In this document: positions 3,622 to 48,180 of the stretch, piece after piece
Position numbering within the stretch: the stretch's first letter is position 1
How the letters are laid out: every line of letters starts with the position of its first letter
Origin: an uncultured Thermotogae bacterium
GTDB taxonomy: Bacteria > Bipolaricaulota > Bipolaricaulia > UBA7950 > UBA9294
Direction: 5' to 3'
DNA: 64,000 nucleotides
Assembly: GCA_964570515.1 (NCBI GenBank)
Contig: CAZMYM010000006.1
Location: forward strand, 15,613 to 79,612
Made by a program: the position numbers and the translations under genes
Notes under the pieces: generated by a model
Databases searched by the model: none
The model's input: only the letters and a program-made list of their open reading frames with translations
What the model was told of the DNA's origin: nothing

Positions 3622-4153
3622 CTGCACCTCCTGAACTCCAGAGTGGCGCCAAGCCCCTCTGCTCTCCCGTCAGGTGTCTGGAACCCCTGACGACGCCCGC
3701 GCACTGAGATTGCGACACGTCGCTGAAACGGGAGTCTTCCTTGCCCATGGCGCCGGCTACGGTGCGGCGCCATTTCCATCATCTCGAACCTACCAGTGGG
3801 CCGTGCGAGTTCGAAGCAGTCCACGGCGATTGGGGACTTGCAGTGATGGCACCGGTTATCATCCCAAGAGCACTCGCCGAGCGACGCTTCTCGTTTCGTT
3901 CTTCCCCTCGGCCCAGACGGGCCATACGCCCTCCTGTCTCGCTGCAATGTTATAGCGAGGCGCGTGCGCCCGCCGAGCCGAAACTCTACCGTCTGCGGTG
4001 GCGAATCTCCAGGTTTGTTGCGGGTTTGCGCGCGATTCGACGATGGGATACGATTTTCGCATTGTTCTTGCGGCCAGGACTTGTGATCCCGTCCCGGGAG
4101 CCCGACCGCACGGCGCCGTTCCGTGACGCGAGGTGACGAACGTGAGGAGTTTC

Positions 4154-16215: not shown

Positions 16216-16830
16216 GTGCATCTCTCAGATTGGGTTCGACGTGAAGGGCAAGTCTTGTCCGATGAGTTCCTGCGAGTCGACGGGTTTCTCAACCATCGCA
16301 TTGCGCCCGCGTTCATCGAAGCGGCAGGTCTTCAAGTTGCATCACGGTTCGCCGACGAGGACGTGACGCTCGTTCTGACCGCCGAGGCGGCCGGGAACGT
16401 CGTTGCCTACGAGATCGCTCGCTGCTTGGAGGCGCGGGCCGTCTACGCAAAGAAGGGGAAAGCAGCGACAATGGCCCGACCCATCGTCCGTTCCCTCCGA
16501 TCGCCGACCAAGGGAACGGAGACCGTGATTGCCGTCTCGCAGGACTACCTGACGCCCGCAGAGCGAGTGCTGATCGTCGACGACTTCCTCTATCAAGGAA
16601 CGACGAGCTCCGCTCTCGCCGACATGGTGATCGAGATCGGGGCCACGCTGGTGGGTTTTGCGTTCATCATCGAGAAGGGATTCGCTGGCGGACGGAAGGC
16701 GTTGTCGCGCTACCCCGTTCCGATCGAGAGCCTCCTCTGTGTCCAACGGATGGATCCCGCGACGGGCACGATCACGTTCGCCGACACGTCGGTGTCTGCA
16801 AGGGCGGGCGGAGAAGACGGCGAGACGTGA
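16216..16830 (+). CDS. xpt: Xanthine phosphoribosyltransferase
   Basis: 204 aa. N-terminal region ..[21 protein letters not shown].. is collinear with Bacillus Xpt (REEGKVLGDGILKVDSFLNHQI) and the PRPP motif is [16 protein letters not shown] start at 16216. The stop overlaps the guaA start. Confidence 0.85.
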
Positions 16831-18341
16831 GCGTCGTCGTTCTCGACTTCGGCTCGCAATACACGAGACTGATCCTACGTCGGCTGCGGGAGCTGGGGAC
16901 GATGTCCGTCACGCTCCCGGGCACGGCGTCCATCGAACGCATCCGATCCGAGGACCCCGAAGCGGTGATCCTTTCTGGCAGTCCGCGGTCTGCGTGTGAG
17001 GCGGAGGCGCCGCGCCCGGAGGACGGCATCTACGATCTTGGGGTTCCGGTTCTTGGCATCTGTTACGGTTTCCACCTTCTCGTTCGGCGCGCCGGCGGAC
17101 GGGTCGTTGCGACGTCCTCGCACGAGTATGGACGTGCACGTCTCACACAGGCCGACGGCCCGCTTTTCGAGGGTATCGATCCGGGAGCGCAAGTCTGGAT
17201 GAGCCACGCCGATTCCGTCGACGAACTCCCGGAGGAATGGACCCCGATTGCCGCGACCTCCGAGAATGCGGTCACGGGCGCGTCCTCGCCCGACAACCGG
17301 CTCATGGGCGTTCAGTTTCACCCGGAGGTTTCTCACACGCCGGCGGGCGCTCGCGTGCTGGCGAACTTCCTCGATTGTGCTGGCGTCGACCGCAACTGGA
17401 CGCCCGGTGCCGTTCTCGACCGCCTCGTCGCGGAGACTGCCGATCGCGTCGGCGGTGCGCGCGTTCTCCTCGCGATCTCAGGTGGCGTCGATTCGAGCAC
17501 CTTGGCGCTTCTTCTCGCCCGTGCCGGGGCCGATCACCTTGGCGTGTTTGTTGATCATGGTCTTCTCCGTGCGGGAGAGAAGGAACAGGTTACGGATGCC
17601 CTGACGGAACTCGGCGTGAAGCTTCACGTGGAGGACGCGAGCGCGAGCTTCCTCGAGGCGCTGCGAGGCGTGTCCGACCCCGAGACGAAGCGCCGGATCA
17701 TCGGGTGGGAGTTCGTTCGCGTCTTTGCGGAGTCGGCAGGGCGGTACGGACCGTTTCGTTTCCTCGCGCAGGGAACGCTCTATCCCGACGTCATCGAGTC
17801 CGCGGGAGGGGAGGGTGCGGCGAACATCAAGAGCCACCACAACGTGGGAGGGCTGCCGGAGCGTCTCGGATTCGAACTGATCGAGCCGTTCCGATTTCTA
17901 TTCAAGGACGAGGTTCGCGAGGTGGCAGGCCTTCTCGGCCTGCCGGATGCGATCCGCGGACGGCATCCCTTCCCGGGACCGGGGTTGGCGATCCGAATCC
18001 TCGGGGAGATCACGCAAGACAAGGTCGAACTGGCGCGGGAGGCCGACCGCGTCTTCGTCGAGGGGCTGCGTGACGCGGGGTGGTACGAGAAGGTCTGGCA
18101 GGCTCTCGCGGTCCTCATCCCCGTCCGGAGCGTGGGTGTGGCGGGAGATGAGCGACGCTACGGGTTCGTCGTCGCTCTCCGCGCGGTGACGAGCGTTGAC
18201 GGGATGACCGCGGACTGGGCGCGTCTTCCGGGCGATCTCCTCGATCACATTTCTTCTCGGATCACGCGGGAGATCCCGGAGATTGGACGCGTCGTGTACG
18301 ACACCACCAGCAAGCCGCCGGCGACGATCGAATGGGAGTAG
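16827..18341 (+). CDS. guaA: GMP synthase (glutamine-hydrolysing)
   Basis: 504 aa. GATase1 domain (GICYGFHLL, Cys-His triad), ATP-PPase SGGVDSS P-loop, and the C-terminal dimerisation domain ending ..TIEWE. Confidence 0.95.
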
Positions 18342-24825: not shown

Positions 24826-25198
24826 GCGACTCCGATTCACTGGCTTGTTCGTATGATGTAATGTATACTGCACCCACCCGAAACGGCAAACCTAGCGAAA
24901 GCTGGAGGCGCAAAGTTACGGGCCTAAGGGAGGAATCCTATGGTCGCCGAACTGCCAAAGGCCATCGAGCGTGGTGCACTTAGCACCACGCGATGTTGTC
25001 TTGCGCGACTCGCTGGTTTCTCCTCCTTAGAACGAGAGCTCTGCTTTTCCTGTTCCAGCCAGTGCGCTGAGCACGGTGGAGAGGCCGTCGCGCTCTTCGG
25101 GTCGTGTGAAGGGTGAGAGGGAGAACAAACGTGTCGCCTCCTTGCGACTCAGCCACGAGCGCAGCATGAGGGGGATGCCTCACTAGCATCCCCCGCTG
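24826..25198 (+). repeat. Direct repeat A, copy 1 (~373 bp; partner at 31734-32117)
   Basis: The two copies are about 85-90% identical by eye. Shared blocks: cttgtt..gtatgatgNaatgtatactgcacc, cccgaaacggcaaacctag, cgcaaagttacgggccta, gggaggaatcct, ggtgtgaagggtgagaggg, ctccttgcgactcagccacgagcgcagcatgaggggg, and a terminal GGGGGATG..CATCCCCC hairpin whose loop differs between the copies. Confidence 0.85.
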
Positions 25199-25399
25199 CG
25201 CGCCTTAAGCTGCTTCTGATTCGCCAGAGCGCCTTCCCGATTGGAAACCGAAGATCCGACTCCGCACGACCTCGCGATAGGGTCTGTGCCCTCCGATCTA
25301 CGAAGCCGACCTGCGCGTGATTAGCGCTCGCATGCCGGGCATCATCTAGCGGACGAAGGAGACGCTCGGTGCTCGGCAGGCGATGAAGGGGGAGCTTCG

Positions 25400-26761
25400 A
25401 TGTTGCAGGGTGGTGGGAGTCCGAAACGTCCGACCGGTATGGTCGGGTTCACGTTTGTCTGGGCGGGACAGATCCTGTCGGTTCTGGCGTCGAGCGCGAC
25501 AAGCTTCGCGTTGACGATCTGGGCCTACCAGACGTACGGGAGTGCGACCGCTCTCGGCGTCATCAGTACCTCGTTCCTGATTCCGTTCATGCTCCTCTCG
25601 CCGGTCGCCGGGGTTCTCGTCGACCGGCACAGCCGGAAGCTGATGATGATGGTCAGCGACGTCGTCGCTGTCGTCGCCACGGTCGGGATTCTGGTGATGC
25701 TCAGCACGGGCGGCCTGCAGATCTGGCATCTGTTCACTGCCGCGGCAGTGATGGGGCTGGGTCACACGTTCCAGTGGCCCGCGTACTCGGCCGCGATCAC
25801 GACGATGCTTCCCAAGGAGCAGTACAACCGCGCCAACGGGATGATGTCGCTGGTCGAGTCCGGCCCAGCCGTCTTCGCTCCGATTCTCGCTGGCGCCCTC
25901 TACCCGATCCTCGGGTTGCGGGGGATCCTCATCCTCGACATCGCGACGTTCTTCATCGCGATTGGCGCGCTCGTCTTCGTCCACATCCCACCGCCCCCGA
26001 AGACGGTCGAGGGACAGGCGGGGAGGGGAAGCATGCTCAAGGAGGCCGTCTACGGCTTCCGCTACATCTTCCAGCGAAAGGGCCTGCTGCACCTGTTGCT
26101 GTTCTTCCTCGCGCTCAACCTCGTGATCGGCCTCGCGTTCAACGTCTTCGACCCGTACATCCTCGAGCGGACGGGAAACAACAGCGCGCATCTCGGCTAC
26201 GTCCGCTCGGCCGCCGCCATCGGCGCGGTGATCGGCGGACTGCTCGTGAGTCTGTGGGGCGGCTTCAAGAGGAAGATGAAGAGCATCCTCCTTGGCGAAG
26301 CGCTGACGGGTGTCACCGCCATGATTTGCTTCGGCGTCGTTCGAAGCCTGCCGTTCTGGATCCTGGCCGCCGGCGTTGGCGCGATCTTCGGCCCCTTCGT
26401 CAACGGGGCAAGCCAGTCGATCTGGCAAGCGAAGGTGGCGCCCGACGTCCAGGGCCGCGTCTTCTCGGCGAGGCGGATGATCGCGTTCGGGATTGGACCG
26501 GTCGTACCCGTCCTCGCCGGCATGCTCGCTGACTACGTAACGGAGCCGGCGATGACCTCGGCAACGTGGCTCTCACGAACGTTCGGTTGGCTGGTCGGCA
26601 CGACGCCCGGATCGGGGATGGCGCTGCAGTTTGTGGTTGCCGGCGTGCTCTACGTTTTGATCGTGCTTGCCGCTGTCTTCTTCATTCCCTCCATTCGCAA
26701 CCTCGAGGACCATCTCCCCGACCACGACGAGATGGAGACTGCCGAGGGGGCAGAAGGATGA
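25400..26761 (+). CDS. MFS transporter (EntS/MFS_3-like efflux family)
   Basis: 453 aa, about 12 TM helices. SD AAGGGGGAG precedes ATG 25400. The stop overlaps the ATG of the downstream APRT-like gene (ATGA). Confidence 0.85.
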   Translation: MLQGGGSPKRPTGMVGFTFVWAGQILSVLASSATSFALTIWAYQTYGSATALGVISTSFLIPFMLLSPVAGVLVDRHSRKLMMMVSDVVAVVATVGILVMLSTGGLQIWHLFTAAAVMGLGHTFQWPAYSAAITTMLPKEQYNRANGMMSLVESGPAVFAPILAGALYPILGLRGILILDIATFFIAIGALVFVHIPPPPKTVEGQAGRGSMLKEAVYGFRYIFQRKGLLHLLLFFLALNLVIGLAFNVFDPYILERTGNNSAHLGYVRSAAAIGAVIGGLLVSLWGGFKRKMKSILLGEALTGVTAMICFGVVRSLPFWILAAGVGAIFGPFVNGASQSIWQAKVAPDVQGRVFSARRMIAFGIGPVVPVLAGMLADYVTEPAMTSATWLSRTFGWLVGTTPGSGMALQFVVAGVLYVLIVLAAVFFIPSIRNLEDHLPDHDEMETAEGAEG

Positions 26762-27282
26762 AGCCGTATCTGGCCAAGATCGACACGAATACCACCGGGA
26801 ACCGCAACGATGTCACGCCGCTGTTCGCGGACCGAGACAGCTTCCGTCAGCTTGTCGACGACCTGGCGCGTCCGTTTCTGAGCGTGGGCATCGACGCGGT
26901 CGTGGCGATCGACGCGCTCGGCTTCATCCTCGGGACGGCGATCGCAGAGCGCCTCGGCGTTGGACTGGTCCCGGCGCGCAAAGGCGGGAAGCTGCCGGTC
27001 GAGGCCATTCATGAGACGTTCGTCGACTACTCCGGAGACCCGAAGGCCCTCGAGATGCGGCGGGATGCGCTGAAGCCGGGGATGAACGTGCTGGTGGTCG
27101 ACGAGTGGGTGGAGACCGGCGCTCAGGTCACGGCGGCGATTGCCCTGGTCGAGTGTCTCGGAGCCCACGTGCGCGGGATCGCCACCATCTGCATGGATCG
27201 CAAAGCAGACACCTCGGAACTGCGCCGAGACTACGCCGTCCACGACGCCTGGAATGACAAGAAGGAAGTCGACGGGAGATAG
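26758..27282 (+). CDS. Adenine phosphoribosyltransferase-family protein (divergent; paralog 1)
   Basis: ORF 26566..27282. ATG at 26758 gives MKPYLAKIDTNTTGNRNDVTPLF... APRT-like core GFILGTAIAERLGVGLVPARKGGKLP and a PRPP-binding loop VLVVDEWVETGAQV (canonical APRT has VLVVDDLLATGGT). 174 aa. Confidence 0.8.
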   Translation: MKPYLAKIDTNTTGNRNDVTPLFADRDSFRQLVDDLARPFLSVGIDAVVAIDALGFILGTAIAERLGVGLVPARKGGKLPVEAIHETFVDYSGDPKALEMRRDALKPGMNVLVVDEWVETGAQVTAAIALVECLGAHVRGIATICMDRKADTSELRRDYAVHDAWNDKKEVDGR

Positions 27283-27334
27283 GAGGAATCCTGGTTCTTG
27301 CGAACTAAGGTACGTGTCCCTCGATCTTACCGAT

Positions 27335-27427
27335 CTGCATGGATCGAACGCGAGCACGTCGGAGCTGCGGCGTGAATACATGGTCCACGACGTCTGGGAT
27401 GACGAGCAAGGTCCCGTGGAGAGATAG
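27335..27427 (+). pseudogene. C-terminal fragment of a third APRT-like gene copy
   Basis: The tail of track ORF 27140..27427 reads ..DLHGSNASTSELRREYMVHDVWDDEQGPVER*. It is collinear with the last ~30 aa of both APRT-like genes (..ICMDRKADTSELRRDYAVHDAWNDKKEVDGR*), and the DNA atctgcatggatcg.. is also shared. Confidence 0.6.
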
Positions 27428-27798
27428 GGTACGTGTCCCCCGATCTCCTGAGAGGTGCAGGAATGCATGTTCGCATCTTGGGTGTGAAAGCAGAGGCAGC
27501 CTAGTTCGTCCGGGTGCTGGCTGAAATCATCGACGTGCCTCCTTTGAAGAAGGCTCGGTGTCACGCCGAGCCGGGCGAGAAGATACCTGATGTTCTCCGG
27601 CGCCTCAAGACGGCCCGAAACGTCCACAGGCATGGGATGCCAATCGGTTGGCGCGGGTTGGCAGCAGTTCGTATCACGAGAAGAAAGAGACTAGAATCAC
27701 AACCCACTGACGCGCTTGACGTCGACGGGTCCCTTAGCACGGAGGATCGGCTTGAGACCAGCGCTTCAGACGCTGTGTCGTACAGAGGAGAGTGGGCA

Positions 27799-28923
27799 AT
27801 GCCCGAGACTGACCGAAGACCGCTCGAGATTCACAGCATCGCGTTCCGCTTCGACGGAAGCGACGTGATCCCGCTGAAGCATCATGCCTTGAGCGACATC
27901 CCACCCCCTTCGATCGGTCGGCCGACCCGCCTTGAGCCCGACTTGCTCGAACTCCCCGTCGATCTCGACCTGGGCAAGCCGGTCCCGACCCCAGAGTACA
28001 TCGAAGGTGAGCGGAACGAGCCGGCGGCGTTCGTGATGGGCGCCCGTCCGAAGATCCAGGTCATCTTCCGCCAGCTTCCGGCGTACGCGGACGAAGCCCT
28101 CTCGATCGGTGCGTCGGGAAACAAGGGCGGGGTGGTCGAGCGAAGCGTCACGCCGGCTTTCGGAGCGTCAGGATTGAGCGATCCTGTCGAGTTCGAGTTG
28201 GCGTCTCCGCTGCCGCAGACCGTGGGCAAGCTGACGCTCTCGCTCGCGTGGTCCGCTGGCAACGCGGGGACGCCGGACGCTTCGATTCCGATCGGATCGA
28301 CGGAACACATGATCTACCTGACCGTCGATCGCCCGGTTGCGCCGTGGGAGAACGAGACTCCGTGGGTCGATGCGCTCGACCTCTCCTGCGAATGGGGAAG
28401 CGGCGCTACGGACAGAGATACGGCTGCAGCGGCGATCACCCGAGGGCTGAACGCGAGTCCGTACCTTCGCTACCACGGGACCACGACGTTTGGGGCGTCG
28501 ACCTTCTTCCTCTCCAGCTTCCTCATGCTGTTCCGCAAGGAGGCCGTCTTCCATCTGAACTGCACCGACTGCGCGGACATGATCGTCACGCTCGCGAACC
28601 TGCTCGGGTGCGACCTGCATCAAGGCAAGGTGTTCGACCTCGAGACGCGGAGGTTCCTGAAGCTTGCCGGAGATCCAGCCGACGACGCGGACTGGGTCTC
28701 GTGTGAATGGAACTTCCACGAGATGGCATGGCTGCACGGCATCGGACCGCAGGCGAGCGTGTACGACGGTTCTCTGCAACTCGACACGGACAAGAACGAT
28801 GCGGACACCGTTCACGTCCCGCAGCTTCCGGCCAAGATGGCGTTCAAGAACTACAAGGCCCTGTTGGTCGAAGACGGACCCTGCAAGCCCGCCAGCTCCG
28901 GTTCCCGGCGGGCTGTGGCCTAG
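27799..28923 (+). CDS. Hypothetical protein with C-terminal transglutaminase-like (papain-fold) Cys-His-Asp core
   Basis: ORF 27514..28923. ATG at 27799 follows GAGGAGAG; alternative starts lie upstream (e.g. ATG 27637). Putative catalytic triad: NCTDCADMIVTLANLLGC (Cys), about 46 aa later NFHEMAWLHG (His), about 15 aa later VYDGSLQLD (Asp). Spacing and motifs resemble transglutaminase-like enzymes. This is my pattern recognition, not a database hit. Confidence 0.6.
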   Translation: MPETDRRPLEIHSIAFRFDGSDVIPLKHHALSDIPPPSIGRPTRLEPDLLELPVDLDLGKPVPTPEYIEGERNEPAAFVMGARPKIQVIFRQLPAYADEALSIGASGNKGGVVERSVTPAFGASGLSDPVEFELASPLPQTVGKLTLSLAWSAGNAGTPDASIPIGSTEHMIYLTVDRPVAPWENETPWVDALDLSCEWGSGATDRDTAAAAITRGLNASPYLRYHGTTTFGASTFFLSSFLMLFRKEAVFHLNCTDCADMIVTLANLLGCDLHQGKVFDLETRRFLKLAGDPADDADWVSCEWNFHEMAWLHGIGPQASVYDGSLQLDTDKNDADTVHVPQLPAKMAFKNYKALLVEDGPCKPASSGSRRAVA

Positions 28924-28932
28924 GAGCGGATC

Positions 28933-29679
28933 ATGAAGAGAGATCTCAAGGCACGATACGGCTTCGGCTCATGGGGAGAACGGCGGGGCGGAGGCGAACG
29001 CCTGCTGGTCCAAGGGTTTGACCCATGGAAGAAGGACTGCATGAACTGGCGCCGAGAGGAGAGACGTGCGCTCCGGGAACCGAAGCAGCGCCTACTCCGC
29101 CGGAGCATGTGGTCTCCTCCGGGCAACCCGAAACAGCGGATTCTCATCGAGGTGAGGGAGACCGCGTCGGCTGAGGCCGCCGCCGAGTGCCTTCTCGACG
29201 TTCTCGGTCAGCACGAGCTCAAGCGCCTTCCGAACGGCTCGAACGACATCGGCGACGTCTGCTTCGTTCACCCGGAGGGGCAGACGCCCGCGATCTTCTG
29301 GACGACCGGGAATCTGTGCATCAGCGTCGTGAGCATCGGACTCAAGCCGATGCCCGTCCTCGATTGGGCACGCCGCCTCAACGCGCGCACCAGCACGAAG
29401 CCGAGAGCACAGGCGTTCGATCTGGCTCTGAAGCCGTCGAAAGGTGACTTGGCGGTGAAGAAGGAGAAGGTCGTGGGAATCGAGCGTCCGAAGGACCTCA
29501 GCGACGAAGCCTTCCTCCAGGTCTTCTCCGAGGGTGCCGATCTCAGCCTGAAGAAGGGCGAGATCCGCATCTGCGCCGCCCAGGAAGGTCCGGTCGCCGT
29601 CGAAGCCTTCGTCGTCGAGCCCGCCCGCCCGCCCCGAGCAGGTCGCCTGGACCTCTCCGCGCGGAAGACTCCGAAGTAA
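28933..29679 (+). CDS. Hypothetical protein (248 aa), operonic with the transglutaminase-like gene
   Basis: SD TAGGAGCGG overlaps the stop of the upstream gene; ATG at 28933. No recognised domain. Confidence 0.55.
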   Translation: MKRDLKARYGFGSWGERRGGGERLLVQGFDPWKKDCMNWRREERRALREPKQRLLRRSMWSPPGNPKQRILIEVRETASAEAAAECLLDVLGQHELKRLPNGSNDIGDVCFVHPEGQTPAIFWTTGNLCISVVSIGLKPMPVLDWARRLNARTSTKPRAQAFDLALKPSKGDLAVKKEKVVGIERPKDLSDEAFLQVFSEGADLSLKKGEIRICAAQEGPVAVEAFVVEPARPPRAGRLDLSARKTPK

Positions 29680-29810
29680 CCTCGCGCCGTGCCTAAGTCG
29701 AGAGGCCCCAAGCGCATGTCTCCGTTCTGTTCACAAGGAACCGCAGTGCTCGGCGCTGCAGGGCACGATCTGATCCCGCTGTCGATCCATCCTCTACAAT
29801 CGGAGCACCG

Positions 29811-30335
29811 ATGAAGCCGTATCTGGCCAAGATCGACACGGACACCACTGGAAACCGCAACGACGTCACGCCGCTGTTCGCGGATCGGGAGAGCTTCAGC
29901 CAACTTGTCGACGATCTGGCTCGGGCGTTTCTGGACGCGGGCATTGATGTGGTCGTCGCGATCGATTCGTTGGGCTTCATCCTTGGGACTGCGATTGCGG
30001 AGCGCCTTGGGGTTGGGCTGGTGCCGGCGTGCAAGGAAGGCAAGCTCCCCGTGCCAGCCGAGCGGGTCGAGTTCGTCGACTACTCCGGACATCAGAAGGC
30101 ACTCGAGATGCGGCGGGACGCACTGAAGACGGGCATGAACGTGCTGATCGTGGACGAGTGGGTCGAAACCGGCGCCCAAGTCAAGGCAGCCATCCTGTTG
30201 GTCGAGCGTCTCGGAGCCTACGTCGGCGGGATTGCCACCATCTGCATGGATCAGAACGCGAGCACGGACGTTCTGCGCCGGGACCACGCCATCCACGACG
30301 TCTGGAATGACGAGAAGGGAGTCGACGGGATATGA
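29811..30335 (+). CDS. Adenine phosphoribosyltransferase-family protein (divergent; paralog 2, ~85% aa identical to paralog 1)
   Basis: MKPYLAKIDTDTTGNRNDVTPLF..VLIVDEWVETGAQV... It is collinear with 26758..27282 over its full length. Confidence 0.8.
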   Translation: MKPYLAKIDTDTTGNRNDVTPLFADRESFSQLVDDLARAFLDAGIDVVVAIDSLGFILGTAIAERLGVGLVPACKEGKLPVPAERVEFVDYSGHQKALEMRRDALKTGMNVLIVDEWVETGAQVKAAILLVERLGAYVGGIATICMDQNASTDVLRRDHAIHDVWNDEKGVDGI

Positions 30336-30622
30336 GGTACGTGTCTCCCTAACTCGCCACACCAGTAGGGCGCGAGGCCTCGAACCCCGTACGAGCGCGG
30401 AAACCGGCTTCAAGCGACCGCATGTCAAACATGCAATCTGTAGTTGTGTCTGCTAACATGATCGAAGCGAGTGGGACGCTACTGGTCTGGATTTGGACTC
30501 CAGCCCGCAAGCAGGGCAGCTCACTCGGACAGGTTGTGGACACCTGTCCTATCCATTAGCTTGCCCAGCCTGCTGCAGCGCCCCCTCAGTGATTCCCGGT
30601 TTTGTGCTATCGTGCCCATACG

Positions 30623-31015
30623 CTAGGCACCGTCGTTCCTGATCTGGCGGAAGGCATTATCTAAGACAACAACAAGCATCTCACCTTTCTGCGTGGGAAC
30701 GAATCTCCTGGCCGATCCGATGTCACTCAGTCCCAATACTCTCGCCAGCTTCCTTCCCGAGACAAAGACACCCAAACTCGTCTTCTGCTTCCTTGTCGGA
30801 TACGAATTCGCATCACCCTCGGATGCTGGGCAAATCGCAAACGCCTTCTTCCCCTCGTCCACAAGGATACTCACAAATCTCGGATTACCAAGCATCTCAA
30901 AAGCCGCCCGGTTGATTGCAAGAGTACCGCCTTTATGCATCGACACGAGAGGCTCTTTGGAACGTCCTCCCCGGGCTCCCCTCTCAAGAGGTCGAAACAT
31001 GTACGTATCGCTCAT
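30623..31015 (-). CDS. Hypothetical protein (130 aa)
   Basis: ORF 30623..31033. Internal ATG at 31015 follows AGAGGGGTGATCAGT. Protein-like composition (..TLAINRAAFEMLGNPRFVSILVDEGKKAFAICPASEG..). No recognised domain. Confidence 0.5.
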   Translation of the reverse strand: MSDTYMFRPLERGARGGRSKEPLVSMHKGGTLAINRAAFEMLGNPRFVSILVDEGKKAFAICPASEGDANSYPTRKQKTSLGVFVSGRKLARVLGLSDIGSARRFVPTQKGEMLVVVLDNAFRQIRNDGA

Positions 31016-31372
31016 ACTGATCACCCCTCTCATGTTGTGGGATTCTACTTCGTTTCTTGCTCCATGTCAAGCCTCACGCAAGAAAAACCTCACTTCGGCA
31101 TACATTTCACTCGCGTCTCTGCTCCGCAAACCACCACCTAGTCTTGGGTTCGGGGACATCTCGGAAAGCGCGCTGTTTGTCAAGGGAGATAACCTCGGTG
31201 CACCCCCTGTGTAGTCGTTTTACGCAGCCGCTTGTCCGGTGAGTCGGAGTCATCTCTTCGCTGTCCAGGCAGCAATAGGTTGTTCGGGTGACGTGTCGCA
31301 ATCACATACGGGAACCTCTTCGGGTTCATGTCCCCGCCGCGCTCACGCCTCCCTCTTCGACTCTACCTATGT

Positions 31373-31615
31373 GGGAGTTCCGGAGACAGGGGAGTTCCGG
31401 GGACACAGTACGAGGGGAGTTCTAGGGACGCAGTACGAAACTCCGGTGTTCGTGAGTGCACCGTGTTGGGCAGGCGTGACGTCGCAGGCGGGTCCTAGAT
31501 GGGATCCCAATTGGTGGTGAAACCCGAGCGTATCTCCTACGCGGATTGCACCCTCATACGGGATCGGCTTCGGGATCGTCAGCCCGGAGTCGTACGCATT
31601 CAGAACGTGGTCCCG
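31373..31615 (+). repeat. Repeat B' (degenerate copy of the 3' end and downstream region of the methyltransferase-like gene at 32487..33704), beginning with a triplicated ~24-27 bp unit
   Basis: Units gggagttccggagacagg / ggagttccggggacacagtacgag / gggagttctagggacgcagtacgaaact. The following ~170 bp match 32450-32632. The minus-strand frame still reads ..YDSGLTIPKPIPYEGAIRVGDTLGFHHQLGS.., homologous to the intact gene's C-terminus. Confidence 0.75.
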
Positions 31616-31733
31616 GCGGATGGGGCTCCAAAGGCAGAACAGGCTCTAGAGGAATCATGATGCAAGCTCCGATCCAGGGTTCAACTGGGTTCTGCCGCAA
31701 TTCACGACGAAGTGCAGAGCTTTGAAACTCGCC

Positions 31734-32117
31734 GGGACTGCGCAGTCTTGCTTGTTTGCCCGTATGATGGAATGTATACTGCACCTACCCGAAACGGCAA
31801 ACCTAGTAAAAGCTAGGGACGCAAAGTTACGGGCCTACGGGAGGAATCCTAAGGTCGCCGAACTGCCGAAGGTCGTCGAACATGGCGCTCCGCGTGCTGT
31901 GTGACGCGTTCCTGAGAGACTCGCTGGCCTTCCTTCCCTCCTTAGAAGAAGAGAGCTCTGCGATTCCTGTTTCAGCCAGTGCGCTGGGCGCGGTGGAGAG
32001 GCCGTCGCGCTCTTCGAGTGGTGTGAAGGGTGAGAGGGGGCAGAAAGACGCGCAACCTCCTTGCGACTCAGCCACGAGCGCAGCATGAGGGGGATGTATC
32101 GGCAGCATCCCCCGCTG
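31734..32117 (+). repeat. Direct repeat A, copy 2
   Basis: See copy 1 at 24826-25198. It sits between repeat B' and the RHH gene. Confidence 0.85.
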
Positions 32118-32207
32118 TGCCTCCCGAGCTCTTTCTGTGTCGCTTGCGCGCGTTCTTCTTTCGGATACCGGGAGGTCGGACCACTAACTCGGACAGAGGA
32201 GGCTGGC

Positions 32208-32387
32208 ATGGCAAGGGAAACGAAGCAACAGCGGGCCACGATGAGCGTCTACATCCCGCAAAGCAAGGCGAGCAAGTGTCTAGTGGGGCGCCTCAGCAGG
32301 CTGGCTGAGAAACGGGACCGCTCAGTCAACTACCTCGTCATCGAGGCGATCTGCGAGTACCTCGATCGCGTGGAGAAGAAAAAGTAG
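32208..32387 (+). CDS. Ribbon-helix-helix (CopG/Arc/MetJ-like) DNA-binding protein, 59 aa
   Basis: ATG at 32208 follows GGACAGAGGAGGCTGGC. MARETKQQRATMSVYIPQSKASKCLVGRLSRLAEKRDRSVNYLVIEAICEYLDRVEKKK shows the beta-strand (SVYIP), helix, helix pattern typical of RHH antitoxins and repressors. It is the tail of track ORF 32061..32387. Confidence 0.7.
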   Translation: MARETKQQRATMSVYIPQSKASKCLVGRLSRLAEKRDRSVNYLVIEAICEYLDRVEKKK

Positions 32388-32419: not shown

Positions 32420-32632
32420 TGCCATTGGCGGAGTTCCCGGGACACAGTACGAAACTTGCGTACTCACATCTGGCGAGTATGTTGCGTCAGGCGCGCGTAA
32501 CGTCACAGACGAGTCCTGGATGAGATCCCAATTCGTAGTGGAACTCGAGCGTATCTCCGCCGCGGATCGCACCATCGTACGGGATCGGCTTCGGGATCGT
32601 CAGCCCGGAATCGTACGCGCGAAGAACGTAAT
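32420..32632 (+). repeat. Repeat B (single ggagttcccgggacacagtacgaaact unit plus the 3' end of the methyltransferase-like gene)
   Basis: Matches 31391-31615. Contains the palindromic core TCCCGGGA and a hairpin AGTACG-AAACTT-GCGTACT immediately downstream of the minus-strand gene. Confidence 0.75.
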
Positions 32633-33704
32633 CCCGATGGACGGTGACCGTTGTGAGCAGCATCGGAGTGTATCGCCCCTCCAGGGAGTGAGGGATGTGG
32701 ATCGAAGCCGCGGGCAATCGATCATCACTCAAGTCGGTCCACTCCGTGATTGTCGCGGCGTTCAGCTCGAAGACGGTACCCAGGAAGAGGCGATCGCGCT
32801 CGGGTGGGACAGGCTCGGCGGCCTCATTACCCAACTTGCTCCTGTTGTTTCCTAGGAAACTGAACTCCTTCGAGACATCGACCAAGTACGCATCGACACG
32901 AACCGACTCGGGAATGAGGGTCGCTAGGGGAGCCTGAGCCAGGAGGTGCCGCGCGATGGGAACCTGGGGCTCCTTCTTCAGACACACGTTCATCGTTTCG
33001 CTCAGGAGGATGTCGGGCGGCCGATCTGCCAAGACTTCGTAGTGGCAGGCGTCGACCGCTTCGTACGCCCGAATGCGACCACTCAGCCCGAGTGCATCGA
33101 TGACCGTTCTGGCCGAGTCGACCGAAGCTTCGTGAATGTCGAGGAGTGTGACCTGTAGCTCGTCTGGGCCGAAGAGGGCCATCGACGGGAGGGCGAGCAC
33201 GGCGTACGGTCCACAGCCGGCGTACAGCAGGTGGGTCGGTCGATCCGGATGAGCAACCCTCACTTCTTGGATCGCCTGCTGCACGCCGCGGGCGAAGACG
33301 ACCGTCCGCACGATGTCGTCGGCACACCGGCCGGCCATGGTCGGAGACAATGCGAGTCCGCTGGAAGTGAAGGTCTCACCATCACCACGGACCTCGGTCG
33401 GCTCGATCCGAACCGTGGCGTGGTCTCGCAGGAGATCCGTCAAGAGACCCAACTCCGCTCTCAAGGCGAAGGCGGGCGTCTGTTCGTCAAGGATCGTGCT
33501 CGCGAGCTGTCGAAGCCGCTCGTCGGACATCATGTGTGCAAGAGTACATCGTGTGTGGCCGCCGCCGGTCAGTGGATCTCGAATCGCGGGGGCCACTCTG
33601 AGCATCCCAACGGGGTCCGCACCGGCGAGAAGATCAATCCAGAGGTGACGATTAGTACATCCTCCCCGTAGGCGACGGGGGACTGGGCGGGGAGAATGTA
33701 ACAC
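32487..33704 (-). CDS. Putative class I SAM-dependent methyltransferase-like protein
   Basis: 405-aa ORF. Motif I-like LLYAGCGPYAVLAL, an acidic post-motif II segment VTLLDIHEASVD, and AYEAVDACHYEV. The start is uncertain (several in-frame Met). The function is inferred from motifs only. Confidence 0.6.
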   Translation of the reverse strand: MLHSPRPVPRRLRGGCTNRHLWIDLLAGADPVGMLRVAPAIRDPLTGGGHTRCTLAHMMSDERLRQLASTILDEQTPAFALRAELGLLTDLLRDHATVRIEPTEVRGDGETFTSSGLALSPTMAGRCADDIVRTVVFARGVQQAIQEVRVAHPDRPTHLLYAGCGPYAVLALPSMALFGPDELQVTLLDIHEASVDSARTVIDALGLSGRIRAYEAVDACHYEVLADRPPDILLSETMNVCLKKEPQVPIARHLLAQAPLATLIPESVRVDAYLVDVSKEFSFLGNNRSKLGNEAAEPVPPERDRLFLGTVFELNAATITEWTDLSDDRLPAASIHIPHSLEGRYTPMLLTTVTVHRDYVLRAYDSGLTIPKPIPYDGAIRGGDTLEFHYELGSHPGLVCDVTRA

Positions 33705-33730: not shown

Positions 33731-34597
33731 ATGATTCGTGTCTCTCGCTCGCTCGTGTTGCTGTTGGTCCTCGGTCTTCTCGCGCTCGGCGGATTCGTCA
33801 CCGCCCAGGGAACGGAATCACCGGATGACCTCATCGCACAAGCCGACCTGGCCTACATGACGCGGCACGTCCTGGAGAGCATGACCGAAGCGATCGCGCT
33901 CTACGAAGCTGTCCTGCCGAATCTGCAGACGCTCTCGGTCTCGTCTCAGGCGTACGTGCTCAATCGCCTGTCGCAGCTGTGCTATGAAGCCGCCATGTTC
34001 ACCGAAGGGAACACGCCCGAGGACAAGGAGCTGTTCACCAACGGCATGGAGTACGGGTTCCAGAGTCTTCGGCTGAACGAGGAATTCGGTGCCCACGAGC
34101 CGGCCGGGCTCGAAGCGGCTTTGCCCTATGCGACCAACGCGATGGCAATGCACTGGACGGCGAACAACTGGGGGATGCTTCTCGAGATGAACCCGAGGCA
34201 GGGACTCTTCGAGCAGGGTTCCGTGATGGCCCTCTTCGAGCGAACCATCGAGGTCGATCAGGGCTTCTGGGGCGGGAGCGCGGCGAGCGCGCTCGGTTCT
34301 CTTCTCATCATGGTCCCCGGAATCATGGGCGGCAACGCCGAACGGGGACTGACTCTCGTCGAGGATTCGATCGAGATGGATCTCTCCTACTTGCATAACC
34401 GGATCATCCTCGCCGAGTACTGGGGGTTCACCTACAACATGTTCGGTGCGCTGACCGGCGTGCGCGATGCCGAGCTGATCGAACGGGAGTGTGCTGTCAT
34501 CCTCGCAGGTGAGATCGGCGACTGGCCGTTCTGGAACCGTCAGGCCAAGCTCGAGGTGGAGCGGCTGTTGGCGCAACTCGCGGAGCGGACCGACTAA
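33731..34597 (+). CDS. Secreted hypothetical protein (signal peptide; helical/TPR-like?)
   Basis: The N-terminus MIRVSRSLVLLLVLGLLALGGFVTAQG is a classic signal peptide. 288 aa. Confidence 0.7.
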   Translation: MIRVSRSLVLLLVLGLLALGGFVTAQGTESPDDLIAQADLAYMTRHVLESMTEAIALYEAVLPNLQTLSVSSQAYVLNRLSQLCYEAAMFTEGNTPEDKELFTNGMEYGFQSLRLNEEFGAHEPAGLEAALPYATNAMAMHWTANNWGMLLEMNPRQGLFEQGSVMALFERTIEVDQGFWGGSAASALGSLLIMVPGIMGGNAERGLTLVEDSIEMDLSYLHNRIILAEYWGFTYNMFGALTGVRDAELIERECAVILAGEIGDWPFWNRQAKLEVERLLAQLAERTD

Positions 34598-44297: not shown

Positions 44298-45829
44298 GAC
44301 TTGGCTCCTTGAAGAAGCTCGATGGTCATCCGAACGGCGGCGGCGTTGCTCTCGGCGACCTGAACGCCCGCGTCCTCCAGCGTGGCTCGCTGCTCGGAAG
44401 CGTTCTGCGGATCGAGGTCCGTGCCCGTCACCGAAGCGACGATGTGCAGGTCGCGGCCCTGCTGCCGCGCCGCTCCGATGGCCGATTGAGCGGCGATCGC
44501 GAGGCTTCCTGCAGGATTCCGGTGAGCCCCGTAGCCGATGACGCAGTCGACGAGAACGATGCCCACGGTCGAATCCGAGCCGGCTTGGGCGACGCGTTCG
44601 TCTCGCAACGATGGCTCTATCATCGGATGCGGGCGTCCGATGGTGAAGGCATCGTCGCCGAGATCCCAGAGAACGTTCGCGGCGACTTGTGCCTCTGGAT
44701 GAACCTTCTCGGCCGGATTGGCGGCGACGTTGGAGACGACATCGACCCCGGCTTGGTTCATCAGGCTCCATGCCTCTTGGCAGAGTGTGCCGCCGCAAAA
44801 GAGGCCGATCGTTCGACCGAAGGTCGAGCGATCTGTCGGAGTTCCGGCGAAGACCGGAACTCCCGCCGACGGCGTAGCAGTCGGCGCAAGGCCGGCTGCG
44901 CTGCAGGCGAGCGTAGCTGCCTCAGCGAGCGTGTCGGCGAACTGAACGGCCCATTCGGGGCTTCTCGCTTCGCCTGCGACGAAGTGCACGACGCCAGGTT
45001 TCCCGGCCGCCGCCAGCGACTCGACAACAGCCTTCGCCACGTCGGGGGCCGGCGCCTTGGAGACGACGACGATGACCTCGGTACTCGGATCCTGGGCGAG
45101 GGCCTCGATGCCGAAGCGCGTCATCGCAGCGCCCACGTCGCTCGACAGGTCGCGCCCCCCGGTTCCGATCGCCTGAGAGATCCCGCCTCCGAGCTGATGG
45201 ACGAGCGAGCTGATCTCCTGGATCCCGGTGCCTGAAGCACCGACGATGCCGACTGTGCCGCGACGGCACGTATTGGCAAACCCGAGAGGGACGCCGTTGA
45301 GGATGGCGGTTCCGCAGTCGGGTCCCATCATCAGGAGGCCTCTCTCGACGGCTTCTTCCTTGAGCGCGACTTCGTCTTCGACGGACACGTTGTCGGAGAA
45401 GAGCATCACGTGCAATCCCTGCCGGAGAGCCTGTCGCGCCTCGCGAGCGGCGTAGGTGCCAGGAACCGAGATCAGCGCGAGGTTGGCGGTCGGATCGATC
45501 TCGACCGCTTCGCGGAGGGTGCTCGGACGGTCGGCTGCGGCTTCGCCGTCCTCGGTGGTCCCGGCAAGCAGCTTCTCGAGACGTTCGCTTGCTGCGTCGA
45601 AGACTTCCTGCGACTCCGCGTCGATCGCAATCAGGAGGGAATCCGGACGAATCCGCGATGTGGACTCCTCTAACGTGAAGCCGACACGCCGTAGGCTGTC
45701 GGTGTTTGACGGCGTCCCCATCGCGACGATCGCCTGGCTCACGCCGGGAAGGCCTTCCAGTTCTTGGCTGATCCGCATCAGGAAAACCGAATCGAAGTAG
45801 CGATTCGGCTCGACCAAGACCCGCTTCAT
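44294..45829 (-). CDS. fdrA: FdrA (acyl-CoA synthetase/succinyl-CoA synthetase alpha-like; oxamate carbamoyltransferase subunit AllF-like)
   Basis: 511 aa. N-terminal FdrA-type domain followed by a CoA-ligase/SucD-like fold (GIVGASGTG, LFCGGTL). Confidence 0.8.
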   Translation of the reverse strand: MKRVLVEPNRYFDSVFLMRISQELEGLPGVSQAIVAMGTPSNTDSLRRVGFTLEESTSRIRPDSLLIAIDAESQEVFDAASERLEKLLAGTTEDGEAAADRPSTLREAVEIDPTANLALISVPGTYAAREARQALRQGLHVMLFSDNVSVEDEVALKEEAVERGLLMMGPDCGTAILNGVPLGFANTCRRGTVGIVGASGTGIQEISSLVHQLGGGISQAIGTGGRDLSSDVGAAMTRFGIEALAQDPSTEVIVVVSKAPAPDVAKAVVESLAAAGKPGVVHFVAGEARSPEWAVQFADTLAEAATLACSAAGLAPTATPSAGVPVFAGTPTDRSTFGRTIGLFCGGTLCQEAWSLMNQAGVDVVSNVAANPAEKVHPEAQVAANVLWDLGDDAFTIGRPHPMIEPSLRDERVAQAGSDSTVGIVLVDCVIGYGAHRNPAGSLAIAAQSAIGAARQQGRDLHIVASVTGTDLDPQNASEQRATLEDAGVQVAESNAAAVRMTIELLQGAKS

Positions 45830-48180
45830 GACGGCGATCCCTTCTCGACCTTCTCCTCGAGAATCCGCAGCAGAATCCGTTCGTAGGAGAGCGGCAGCGT
45901 GGAGAACTCGATCCCGAGGGCATCGTAGAGCGCGTTCCCGACGGCCGAGGGAACCGAGATCATCGGATGCTCGGCGACGCCGCGCGCGCCGTACGGACCA
46001 CCCGGCTGCGGGTTCTCGAGGAAGATCTGCTCCGTCTCGCGCGGCAGGTCCTTGGCCGTTGGGATCTTGTAGTCGGCGAGCGACGGATTGAGGAAGCGGC
46101 CGCTCTCATCGAACAAGAATCCTTCCGAGAGAGCGGAGCCTAGCCCTTGGACGACGCCGCCAACGACCTGACCGACGACGAGCTTCGGGTTGAGGATCTT
46201 GCCCGCGTCGATGGCGGTCACGATCTTGAGGATCTCGATCTCGCCGGTCTCGGTGTCGATCTCGACCTCGACCGCGTGCGCCCCGTAGGTCCAATACTGC
46301 GCCGGCAGACCTTGCCCGGTCTCCGGGTCGAGGTGCGTCAGCCCCGTCGCGATGAAGCGTCCACGGCCGATGACCGGTCCGCCGATCGAGTTTCCGTTGG
46401 GGAACGTATAGCCGAGCGAAAGCCGGCTGTAGGGGATGCGCTTGTCGGGGCGTTCTCGGGCGAAGACTTCTCCGTTCTCGCAGACGATGTCCGCGGGGTC
46501 GGCGTCGAGTGCCTTTCCGGCGACATCGCGGATCTGGCGGAGGCAGTCGGCGGCGGCTTCGATGACCGCGTTTCCGCCCATGTACGCGAAGCGGCTGGCG
46601 ACCGTTTGCCAGTCGTAGGGCGAGAAGGCGGTGTCGCACTCCCACGTGACGTGTGCGCGCTCGATCGGAATCTTCAGCTCCTCGGCCGCGATCTGCCGCA
46701 GCACGGTGTAGGTCCCCTGACCGTAGTCGACGCCGGAGACGAGGATGTCGGCTGCGCCGTCTTCGTCGAGCTTGATGACCGCGGCACAGCTGGTATAGGT
46801 CGGCATGGCCGGCGCCTTGTGGAGCACCGCGATCCCCTTACCGCGGACCTTGTTCGGCTCGGCCGGCGCTTCGCTCGGCGCCTCCCAGTCGATCGCTTCG
46901 GCGGCCGCTTCGAGGCAGCCGACAGGACTTCCGTGGCCGGACGTGAACGGCTCGCCGGTGATCGTCGTGTCCCCCTCCTTGAGAAGATTTGTGCGACGGA
47001 GCTTCACCGGATCCATGTCGAGCTTCCGGGCCATCATGTCGACCGCTCGCTCGACTCCCCACAACACCTCCAGGTGGCCGAACCCTCGGTACGCGGTGCC
47101 GAAGACCTTGTTGGTGTAGACGACGAAAGAATCGATCCAGCAGTTGTCAATGGCGTACGGACCGGCGCCGGCGTACGCGGCGGCGCGGCCGATGTTGACG
47201 CCGTAGTCTGCGTATGCGCCCGCGTCCCAGACGTAGGTTGACTTGAGGGCCTCGATCTTCCCGGCTGTCGTGCAGCCGATCTCGATTGTCGAGTGCAAAC
47301 CCTGCCGCGAAGGGAGCGTGTTGAACTCCTCCTCGCGGGTCGCGACGACCTTCACCGGCCGCCCGCCGGCCGCCCGCGACAGGACGTAGGCGAGCGGCTC
47401 GAGTCCCAGCCCCGCCTTTCCGCCGAACCCGCCCCCGACGTACGGGACGTGCACGCGGATGTTCGCGTGAGGCATGTCGAACGCGTCGCTCATCAAGTGG
47501 CGGACGGTGTACGGCGATTGGCTCGACGTCCAGATCTCGGCGCGCCCGCCGGGCAAGACCTGGGCGATGGTCGCGTGCGTCTCCATCGGGACGTGCTGGA
47601 CGGGCGGGTTGTAGAAGCTGGCCGTCAGCTGAACGTCCGCGTGTCCGAACGCTGCATCGAAGTCGCCCTTCCGGATCTTCTGGTGATGGGCGATGTTCGT
47701 GTGCTCCTTGGGGAAGAAGACGCCCTTCATGTGCTCGTAGTCGGCGAGGTCGGGATGGACGAGGTGTGCGCCTTCGGCCATCGCGTCTCGCGGATCGAGG
47801 ACGGCGTCGAGAGGCTCGTACTCGACCTCGATTTGCGAGCAGGCTTCGCGTGCGATGTCGAGGCTGTCGGCTGCGACGGCAACGACGGCCTCTCCCTGGT
47901 AGCGCACGACCTCCCGAGCAAGGATGCATTTGTCTTGCATGTAGAGGCCGAGGCGATAGCAGAGACTGTCTCCTGTGAGAATCGCGCGCACGCCGGGCAG
48001 TGCCTCGGCCGCTTCGGTGGCGACGCGCACGATGCGCGCCGACGCGTGCGGCGACTTCACGAGGGCCGCGTGGAGCATTCCGGGGACAACAAGGTCGTGG
48101 GTGTAGCGTGCCGTTCCGGCGACCTTGTCAATGCCATCTTCACGGGCAACGCCCTTGCCCACGTAGCGCAGCTCACTCAC
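45826..48180 (-). CDS. Xanthine dehydrogenase family molybdopterin-binding large subunit
   Basis: 784 aa with aldehyde oxidase/xanthine dehydrogenase a/b-hammerhead and MoCo-binding domains (GGGFGGK, ..GQGLHST..). It follows the 2Fe-2S and FAD subunits in an M-S-L order. Confidence 0.88.
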   Translation of the reverse strand: MSELRYVGKGVAREDGIDKVAGTARYTHDLVVPGMLHAALVKSPHASARIVRVATEAAEALPGVRAILTGDSLCYRLGLYMQDKCILAREVVRYQGEAVVAVAADSLDIAREACSQIEVEYEPLDAVLDPRDAMAEGAHLVHPDLADYEHMKGVFFPKEHTNIAHHQKIRKGDFDAAFGHADVQLTASFYNPPVQHVPMETHATIAQVLPGGRAEIWTSSQSPYTVRHLMSDAFDMPHANIRVHVPYVGGGFGGKAGLGLEPLAYVLSRAAGGRPVKVVATREEEFNTLPSRQGLHSTIEIGCTTAGKIEALKSTYVWDAGAYADYGVNIGRAAAYAGAGPYAIDNCWIDSFVVYTNKVFGTAYRGFGHLEVLWGVERAVDMMARKLDMDPVKLRRTNLLKEGDTTITGEPFTSGHGSPVGCLEAAAEAIDWEAPSEAPAEPNKVRGKGIAVLHKAPAMPTYTSCAAVIKLDEDGAADILVSGVDYGQGTYTVLRQIAAEELKIPIERAHVTWECDTAFSPYDWQTVASRFAYMGGNAVIEAAADCLRQIRDVAGKALDADPADIVCENGEVFARERPDKRIPYSRLSLGYTFPNGNSIGGPVIGRGRFIATGLTHLDPETGQGLPAQYWTYGAHAVEVEIDTETGEIEILKIVTAIDAGKILNPKLVVGQVVGGVVQGLGSALSEGFLFDESGRFLNPSLADYKIPTAKDLPRETEQIFLENPQPGGPYGARGVAEHPMISVPSAVGNALYDALGIEFSTLPLSYERILLRILEEKVEKGSPS

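Follow-up and report, generated by a model that had tools for sequence, protein, structure and literature searches.

A probable mosaic of riboswitch-led and transglutaminase-like gene units in a Bipolaricaulota-like metagenomic genome

Do the five co-directional genes found between positions 25400 and 30335 of the window (the whole 64-kb stretch of DNA that was analysed, from a Bipolaricaulota-like metagenomic genome) belong to a single system? They encode an MFS exporter, two phosphoribosyltransferases (PRTases), a transglutaminase-like enzyme and its partner, and the original prediction grouped them in a dedicated, repeat-bounded cassette. The sequence features described there are largely present. 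The dedicated system is not, since the gene types are unlinked elsewhere: the transglutaminase-like pair, the PRTase and the MFS gene each occur apart from the others, an observation which the prediction itself had named as evidence against its reading. The region is probably a rearrangement-prone mosaic of independent units and not a single system, comprising an exporter/APRT-like operon led by a riboswitch, another APRT-like gene and a transglutaminase-like pair that is complete in itself; all genes are under purifying selection (dN/dS 0.08-0.36). What endures from the analysis is an extensive two-component family of transglutaminase-like proteins that lacks annotation.

The two direct repeats, originally described as approximately 380 bp in length, are present (about 400 bp, 76-90% identical). 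Comparison with Rfam identifies both as paralogous c-di-GMP-I riboswitch leaders rather than anonymous duplication scars, and both fall outside the 25400-30335 span that they were said to bound. Leader repeat A (24840-25236, + strand; direct-repeat families D4-D6) comprises a promoter-like stretch, an aptamer (24875-24959, +; match to the full-length RF01051 model at 73.8 bits, gathering score 35) and a conserved structured leader of about 280 nt. A terminator-like hairpin after the aptamer (24969-24991, +), with a nine-pair stem and then GATGTTGTCTT, is a candidate expression platform, and its pairing is kept by compensatory changes across four leader copies. Leader repeat B (31751-32155, +) likewise contains a promoter-like stretch, an aptamer (31786-31870, +; RF01051, 76 bits) and the conserved leader. 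Both aptamers cover model positions 1-87 of 87, with RF01051 the best match within clan CL00126. They carry G, A and C at positions which we take to match the Vc2 ligand contacts G20, A47 and C92, and c-di-GMP would, judging from sequence, be their actual ligand.

Copy A lies upstream of the MFS gene and copy B upstream of a small gene encoding a 59-aa ribbon-helix-helix protein (32208-32387, +; Pfam RHH_1, E 0.0024, below cut-off). Leader A can be aligned with copy B and with the leaders of L017 and L038. The same aptamer and leader precede a 71%-identical ribbon-helix-helix homologue in L017, and a DUF302-MFS-PRTase gene series in L038 and L039. Copy A retains the ribosome-binding site and first codons of DUF302 and then joins sequence upstream of the MFS gene, indicating that the DUF302 gene was deleted.

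The MFS gene itself (25400-26761, +) was confirmed (Pfam MFS_1, E 4e-34), and its product, predicted to be an efflux pump, resembles DHA3/Mef-type pumps. Its stop codon overlaps the start of the first PRTase gene as ATGA at 26758-26761, again as predicted. The transporter has more than 558 metagenomic relatives and a dN/dS of 0.08 in comparison with L038. Its adjacency to a PRTase is limited to relatives with an MFS at least 82% identical: none of some 70 MFS homologues at 54-81% identity has a PRTase nearby (some of the contigs are short), and relatives with 78-83% MFS identity show other gene orders. The first unit would consist of a c-di-GMP-I riboswitch with its long leader, the MFS exporter and the overlapping APRT-like PRTase gene, derived from the riboswitch-DUF302-MFS-PRTase order of the closest relatives by loss of the DUF302 gene. 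Cellular c-di-GMP probably controls transcription read-through into the exporter/PRTase pair.

PRTase1 (26758-27282, +) and PRTase2 (29811-30335, +) belong to different lineages of the same APRT-like subfamily. Both pass the Pfam Pribosyltran model for type I phosphoribosyltransferases (36.7 and 41.3 bits, gathering score 26.3). They had been called near-identical; at 80% protein identity, 82-83% DNA identity and a dS of 0.60 (dN/dS 0.22), and with different closest relatives, they are not. A rough neighbour-joining tree places PRTase1 next to the MFS-linked PRTase from L038 and PRTase2 next to P0040 of L017, and PRTase2 carries the substitutions R74C, G76E and A53S at near-invariant positions. 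The third unit would be a second, older paralogue, part of the adjoining riboswitch-B/ribbon-helix-helix unit, as in a related genome. The predicted C-terminal fragment of a third copy was confirmed as a 3'-end remnant at about 27331-27427 (+; repeat D7, 73% identical to 30254-30355, tblastn match to PRTase2 residues 149-170), with a repeated 19-nt 3' flank (GGTACGTGTCCC.CGATCT) at about 27308 and 27427. The canonical PRPP loop DDLLATGGT is absent from both proteins, which have VDEWVETGAQ instead. DEWVETGAQ is not peculiar to this locus, being invariant in 24 of 24 aligned proteins sampled from an APRT-like family of more than 1,100.

None of the NCBIfam apt equivalog cut-offs is reached (best scores 113.7 against 170, 111 against 125 and 108.6 against 185.85), and among solved structures the best relatives are genuine APRTs (E 1e-22). 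The PRTases presumably differ at the adenine-contacting positions of characterised APRTs, and the adenine-stacking Phe of Apt is, we assume, not conserved in them. Taken with the low apt scores, this makes a non-adenine base a possible substrate. Close homologues in four genomes stand alone beside a GNAT gene, with neither an MFS nor a transglutaminase-like gene nearby, and in two of the four the neighbours include AllFGH/xanthine-dehydrogenase genes of purine catabolism. Both proteins are members of a large APRT-like subfamily and most likely serve purine salvage in this lineage. No canonical apt was found within the 64-kb window. Canonical hpt and xpt had both been reported there: hpt is present (8405-8983), and the gene at 16216-16830 is xpt-like, falling just under the NCBIfam cut-off (156.3 against 164.45).

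The transglutaminase-like gene (27799-28923, +; 374 aa) and its partner (28933-29679, +; 248 aa) form the predicted two-gene operon: the reading frames lie 9 nt apart, and an AGGAG motif overlaps the first stop codon. Neither protein matches a Pfam, NCBIfam or PADLOC model, in agreement with their description as lacking a recognisable family. The assignment of the 374-aa protein as transglutaminase-like also held. It has an N-terminal beta-sandwich and a Cys255-His307-Asp323 core, with the motifs NCTDCAD, HEMAW and DGSLQLD, and the putative catalytic Cys opens a helix that packs on the beta-sheet bearing the His and Asp. The putative triad is conserved (C255 and H307 in 150 of 150 sequences, D323 in 146 of 150, with gaps in the remaining four). 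Pfam Transglut_core (PF01841) gave no match even at E 10 with 23 family members, and searching the PDB sequences by profile retrieved no transglutaminase. The enzyme is apparently cytoplasmic, since no signal-peptide-like N-terminus is visible. The partner consists of a Mog1/PsbP/PknH-sensor-like domain and a C-terminal Ig-like domain.

The two genes adjoin in about 24 loci, which are spread over at least 10 lineages, the hosts including Bipolaricaulia, NC10, Planctomycetota, Myxococcota, Thermoanaerobaculia, Gemmatimonadota, Proteobacteria and a Thermoplasmatales archaeon, and enzyme and partner are fused into one polypeptide in about one third of the top family representatives. The searched pair loci contain no PRTase or MFS gene in flanking DNA (up to 8 kb) and no third conserved gene. 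With at least 2,100 clusters (50% identity), the family extends over bacteria and archaea and has both split and fused forms. The second unit of the locus would be this bicistronic pair, with a cytoplasmic transglutaminase-fold Cys-His-Asp enzyme. Such an enzyme would form a thioester acyl-enzyme and so attack an amide of a protein or peptide, with transamidase, deamidase or isopeptidase activity. Its 248-aa partner would be a non-catalytic subunit which regulates the enzyme or recruits its substrate, the comparison being with the C-terminal beta-barrels found in animal transglutaminases.

The DNA between the repeats additionally holds a minus-strand gene for a 136-aa protein (30623-31033), with no match in Pfam, NCBIfam or PADLOC and with a strong sigma-70-like promoter (TTGACA-17-TAGAAT at 31070-31042), and a duplicated 3'-end fragment of a 405-aa gene (31469-31623; repeat D3, 83% identical to 32490-32644, tblastn match to residues 355-405), which is a duplication scar. 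Such fragments, the G+C dip at 30-32 kb and the presence of two direct repeats, each about 400 bp long and 76-90% identical to the other, might suggest a transposed cassette delimited by mobile-element ends or by a recent segmental duplication. However, both repeats are riboswitch leaders in full, promoter-like stretch included, correctly oriented before a gene and likewise conserved before genes in other genomes; transposase and integrase genes and a tRNA were sought without success; and the divergence of the repeats exceeds that of a recent duplication. This origin is scarcely credible. It is also very improbable that all five genes, with the riboswitches, serve one dedicated purpose, whether defence or the production and export of a modified nucleobase or nucleoside, in a scheme where the PRTase would make the product, the exporter secrete it and the transglutaminase-like pair act as helper. 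The genes are co-directional, with no terminator-like site detected on the + strand from 24991 to 31733, so that transcription from riboswitch A may run through into the transglutaminase-like pair and PRTase2. The overlap of the MFS and PRTase1 genes, the PRTase scores below the apt cut-offs and an arrangement identical in several metagenome samples of one population fit the same idea. In spite of this, linkage was not seen beyond that population: comparison of PRTase, MFS and transglutaminase-pair loci found no co-occurrence of the five genes across genomes, with no PRTase or MFS in the searched flanks (up to 8 kb) of the roughly 24 pair loci, neither an MFS nor a transglutaminase-like gene near the PRTase homologue in any of the four genomes, and different gene orders in the MFS relatives mentioned above. 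PADLOC-DB 2.0 returned no match for six proteins at E up to 0.1, and the PRTase remnant and other scars indicate that rearrangement brought the genes together. The PRTase-exporter-peptidase combination is not a real unit and does not merit pursuit as one.

For the pair itself, strict pairing and a patchy distribution would be consistent with a horizontally spread toxin-immunity or toxin-antitoxin module, in which a toxic protease or deamidase is neutralised by the 248-aa protein. This seems unlikely, as toxin and antidote are not usually fused in the way noted above, the pair neighbourhoods are of housekeeping type and free of mobile-element, secretion or defence genes, PADLOC matches are again lacking and both proteins are under ordinary purifying selection. 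More tentatively than the mosaic reading of the locus, the pair may stand for a large and so far undescribed class of two-component transglutaminase-like enzymes of the cytoplasm, with a dedicated Mog1/PsbP-plus-Ig subunit that gates or targets an animal-type beta-sandwich and core. If so, this would be a prokaryotic protein-modifying machine (transamidating, deamidating or isopeptidase) with a new mode of regulation, and possibly related to the way in which the animal transglutaminases are built from several domains.

Each unit can be set against a known system. The transporter shares full-length MFS_1 and MFS_3 matches with DHA3-type pumps (TIGR00900; Mef, Tet(V), Tap, EntS), TIGR00900 being its best NCBIfam match (E 5e-63), but it scores 213.6 bits against a cut-off of 319.6 and falls far under every resistance-gene model. 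Like Apt (TIGR01090 / PRK02304), the PRTases are type I enzymes of about 174 aa; Apt provides their best family and PDB matches (E 1e-33 and 1e-22), and they retain the RKGGKLP segment as well as the two acidic residues of the PRPP motif. They differ in their scores (104-114 bits against cut-offs of 125-243) and in the family signature MKxYLxxIDTxTxGNRxDVTPLF ... DYSG ... VDEW[IV]ETG[AT]Q, where Apt has DDLLATGGT.

With 74-76 bits, roughly double the gathering score, both aptamers fit the full RF01051 covariance model; they match it better than the variant families of the same clan, and each has a terminator-like hairpin on its 3' side. In contrast, the leaders run about 280 nt further, with 340-440 nt between aptamer and start codon, and this extension is conserved among paralogous copies preceding different genes. 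A long platform with two terminators is described for Bc1 of Bacillus thuringiensis (PMC11218506). In this uncultured lineage the leaders have been copied ahead of an exporter/APRT-like operon, of a DUF302 gene and of the gene for a small regulator of ribbon-helix-helix type, which points to c-di-GMP targets beyond the usual motility and biofilm set.

The 374-aa family differs from the rest of the transglutaminase-like superfamily (animal TG2/TG3/FXIII, LapG, PeiW/PeiP, protein-glutaminase, arylamine N-acetyltransferases) in that no sequence model recognises it, and from the animal enzymes in having no C-terminal barrels. Its apparent cytoplasmic location is a further difference. This sizeable family, whose fold is confidently of transglutaminase type and whose triad is intact, has escaped the Pfam, NCBIfam and PADLOC models. 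It has an obligate Mog1/PsbP-like and Ig-like partner, separate or fused, and this constant association with a specific partner domain offers an experimental handle on a new protein-modification activity.

The genes named in the original prediction are present, as ORF listing and family scans show, and that observation was largely correct. The MFS transporter gene (25400-26761, plus strand) is followed on the same strand by a gene for a 174-aa APRT-like phosphoribosyltransferase, PRTase1 (26758-27282), whose ATG, read directly in the sequence, overlaps the MFS stop codon TGA. Next comes a remnant of one more PRTase gene (about 27331-27427), reduced to its 3' part; it has its own stop codon, and the 19-nt 3' flank recurs directly after it. 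The 374-aa ORF (27799-28923), whose stop is overlapped by an AGGAG motif, and, 9 nt after it, the 248-aa ORF (28933-29679) precede a second 174-aa PRTase gene, PRTase2 (29811-30335). A 136-aa protein without family match is encoded on the minus strand (30623-31070 including the promoter) in a G+C dip of 57-58%; the sigma-70-like promoter just upstream of the gene is TTGACA-17-TAGAAT (11 of 12 matches). Farther along lie a 59-aa ribbon-helix-helix gene (32208-32387) and a gene for a 405-aa protein of no known family (32487-33704, minus strand). Elsewhere in the window, hpt (8405-8983) and guaA (16827-18341) were confirmed, and a xanthine-dehydrogenase-type gene occurs at 45826-48180. The supposed canonical xpt (16216-16830) falls just under the NCBIfam cut-off and is only xpt-like. 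The genes of the prediction and those listed elsewhere in the window all have dN/dS values of 0.08-0.36 against homologues, indicating purifying selection.

The proposal that five of these genes, at 25400-30335, form one dedicated, repeat-bounded system is not supported. Among the best 80 metagenomic loci of more than 558 with MFS homologues, a PRTase gene, apparently frameshifted, lies directly 3' of the MFS gene only in loci L038 and L039 (93% MFS identity). In L042 and L044 (83%) the order is MFS, 405-aa gene on the opposite strand, PRTase; in L040 (90%) MFS fragments stand in place of the PRTase; and at 81% identity or below no PRTase was found beside the MFS gene in the sequence at hand, some contigs being short. 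Since the PRTase follows only the MFS genes of the closest relatives, the coupling is confined to one narrow clade. The PRTase homologue (71-78% identical) was without a nearby MFS gene in all four related genomes examined. Finally, the 374-aa/248-aa pair has no third conserved gene beside it: all-against-all clustering of ORFs from 24 loci returned only out-of-frame shadows of the pair itself. In the L038 PRTase (3406-3915) the in-frame ORF ends at 116 aa and the tblastn match runs on to residue 170, so that the gene is a pseudogene or the assembly is wrong at this point.

The PRTases themselves belong to a separate APRT-like subfamily with over 1,100 members. A family search with an E threshold of 1e-10 recovered 1,167 proteins, and members (P0035-P0153) come from Bipolaricaulota, Eisenbacteria, Sabulitectum and a Thorarchaeota MAG. 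Among curated families and solved structures the best matches are true Apt proteins (E 1e-33 and 1e-22), and the PRTase scores fall below every NCBIfam Apt cut-off. The DEWVETGAQ loop, taken for a local oddity, is in fact a family signature: in an alignment of 24 diverse members VDEW[IV]ETG[AT]Q and the N-terminal MKxYLxxIDTxTxGNRxDVTPLF are invariant or nearly so. Among the four related genomes, a GNAT acetyltransferase gene is close to the homologue in three, and AllH, cyclase, AllG, AllF and xanthine-dehydrogenase genes follow it in two; genes of the AllH/AllG/AllF/xanthine-dehydrogenase cluster also occur 10-18 kb downstream in the window. The second PRTase had been described as near-identical to the first. 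The two are 80% identical with a dS of 0.60, and a rough NJ tree separates them: PRTase1 clusters with L038's MFS-linked copy, and PRTase2 with P0040, the copy in the Bipolaricaulota MAG locus L017 that adjoins a riboswitch/ribbon-helix-helix unit. They are two paralogue lineages of long standing, which keep different conserved neighbours, and not a recent duplication bracketing a cassette. PRTase2 departs from the subfamily at three positions with 90% conservation or more (R74C, G76E and A53S), among them the Arg of RKGGKLP, and is still under purifying selection (dN/dS 0.22); these substitutions suggest that its activity may be altered or reduced.

The flanking direct repeats (24840-25236 and 31751-32155) are real and 76-90% identical, and lie outside the interval assigned to the cassette. 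Each opens with a conserved promoter-like stretch followed by a complete c-di-GMP-I aptamer detected with Rfam (24875-24959, 73.8 bits, in copy A; 31786-31870, 76 bits, in copy B; gathering score 35), and in both c-di-GMP-I outscores the variant families of the same clan. A terminator-like hairpin (24969-24991 in copy A) follows the aptamer, and its pairing is kept via compensatory changes, weak evidence given only four leader copies. Beyond it each repeat continues as a conserved, hairpin-rich leader of about 280 nt, perhaps an expression platform of unusual length, perhaps an RNA element in its own right. This long leader (24960-25240 and 31871-32155 in the window; 2790-3086, minus strand, in L017; 973-1290 in L038) is common to the paralogous copies before MFS, ribbon-helix-helix and DUF302 genes and contains a GGGGGAUGC...GCAUCCCCC hairpin. 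The order of copy B, aptamer, leader, ribbon-helix-helix gene, recurs in L017, where the ribbon-helix-helix gene is 71% identical, and in L038 and L039 aptamer and leader precede DUF302, MFS and PRTase genes. Given the Rfam aptamers, the leader structure and the same leaders in relatives, the repeats are not cassette boundaries; they are paralogous regulatory leaders. In copy A the ribosome-binding site and first codons of DUF302 are still there, joined straight to the sequence upstream of the MFS gene, so the position of this copy directly before that gene is the product of a deletion. In L040 (6706-7839) two MFS gene fragments follow the MFS gene and are succeeded by an aptamer whose best model is the c-di-GMP-I-GGC variant (RF03167, 62.8 bits). 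No riboswitch was found upstream of the pair in five other loci (L007, L008, L009, L011 and L018), and a literature search returned nothing relevant linking APRT with c-di-GMP riboswitches.

The same genes (MFS, PRTase, 405-aa gene and pair) occur in three different orders in three related genomes, and the window holds gene fragments at 27331-27427 and 31469-31623. The latter, upstream of riboswitch B, copies the 3'-terminal part of the 405-aa gene (83% identical to 32490-32644) and is another rearrangement scar. A tRNA search of the window came up empty, and none of the ORFs near the repeats was recognised as a transposase or integrase. From the gene orders and fragments, the region is probably a recombination hot spot in which independent units have been brought side by side. 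The 405-aa gene marks the ancestral neighbourhood (window 32487-33704, minus strand, and 33731-34597, plus strand) around which the rearrangements occurred. It lies directly beside the MFS gene in L042-L044, and in L009 its homologue (60% identity) adjoins a TAtT-family gene and a sulfotransferase gene. No terminator-like site was predicted on the plus strand from 24991 to 31733, so transcriptional read-through across the units may occur.

The lasting value of the locus lies in an unannotated two-component transglutaminase-like family and, secondarily, in the duplicated c-di-GMP riboswitch leaders. Neither the 374-aa nor the 248-aa protein has a match in Pfam, NCBIfam or PADLOC. An AlphaFold model of the 374-aa protein with 23 homologues is confident (pLDDT 90, pTM 0.88) and places C255 at the start of helix 255-268, H307 within strand 303-312 and D323 after strand 320-322. 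All 150 sequences compared (149 diverse representatives and the window protein) have C255 and H307, and 146 have D323. Pfam Transglut_core matches none of the family members tested, and a PDB profile search for a sequence link to solved transglutaminases produced nothing beyond chance hits. The transglutaminase-like assignment originally made from motifs is therefore right at the level of the predicted fold, and the family itself is unannotated. With an E threshold of 0.001, an exhaustive HMMER search recovered 2,159 cluster representatives, of which 522 reach 1e-30 or better. Other variants carry an extra N-terminal beta-propeller, Laminin_G_3 or TSP3 module, and a signal peptide is not visible in most. 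Some Thermoanaerobaculia and Kiritimatiellae loci have two transglutaminase-like genes in tandem or nearby (L026, 6727-8819; L027, 6919-8819; L037, 28-1071 and 2684-4009).

The 248-aa gene lies downstream of the enzyme gene, mostly no more than tens of bases away. This order was seen in the three loci nearest to the window, in 16 of 20 genome loci (at least nine lineages) and in another three contigs. About 50 of the top 149 representatives have both as a single polypeptide of 530-720 aa, enzyme first and 248-like domain second; P0196 is one of the fused homologues. These fusions turned up only in the exhaustive search; homologues of about 600 aa first taken for them have 250 extra N-terminal residues, which form a beta-propeller of NHL/SGL type and bear no relation to the 248-aa protein. 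An F111-x-H113-P114 loop is invariant in the partner. C129 of the 248-aa protein, considered as a catalytic Cys, is not conserved across the wider family, and Foldseek of its model against the PDB gave only two-domain look-alikes of low TM-score. The literature search found no described transglutaminase-like/Mog1-PsbP pair.

Since the triad is invariant, the enzyme would work covalently, forming a Cys thioester with an amide substrate, possibly in transamidation, deamidation or isopeptide/peptide cleavage. The pair might instead be a toxin with its immunity protein, as its patchy distribution would allow, but this fits poorly with the natural enzyme-partner fusions, the ordinary gene neighbourhoods and the absence of PADLOC defence matches. 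The partner is obligate, often fused and of a binding-type fold, and the simplest reading makes it a subunit that regulates the enzyme or recruits its substrate. It would then bear a loose analogy to the C-terminal barrels by which animal transglutaminases are gated.
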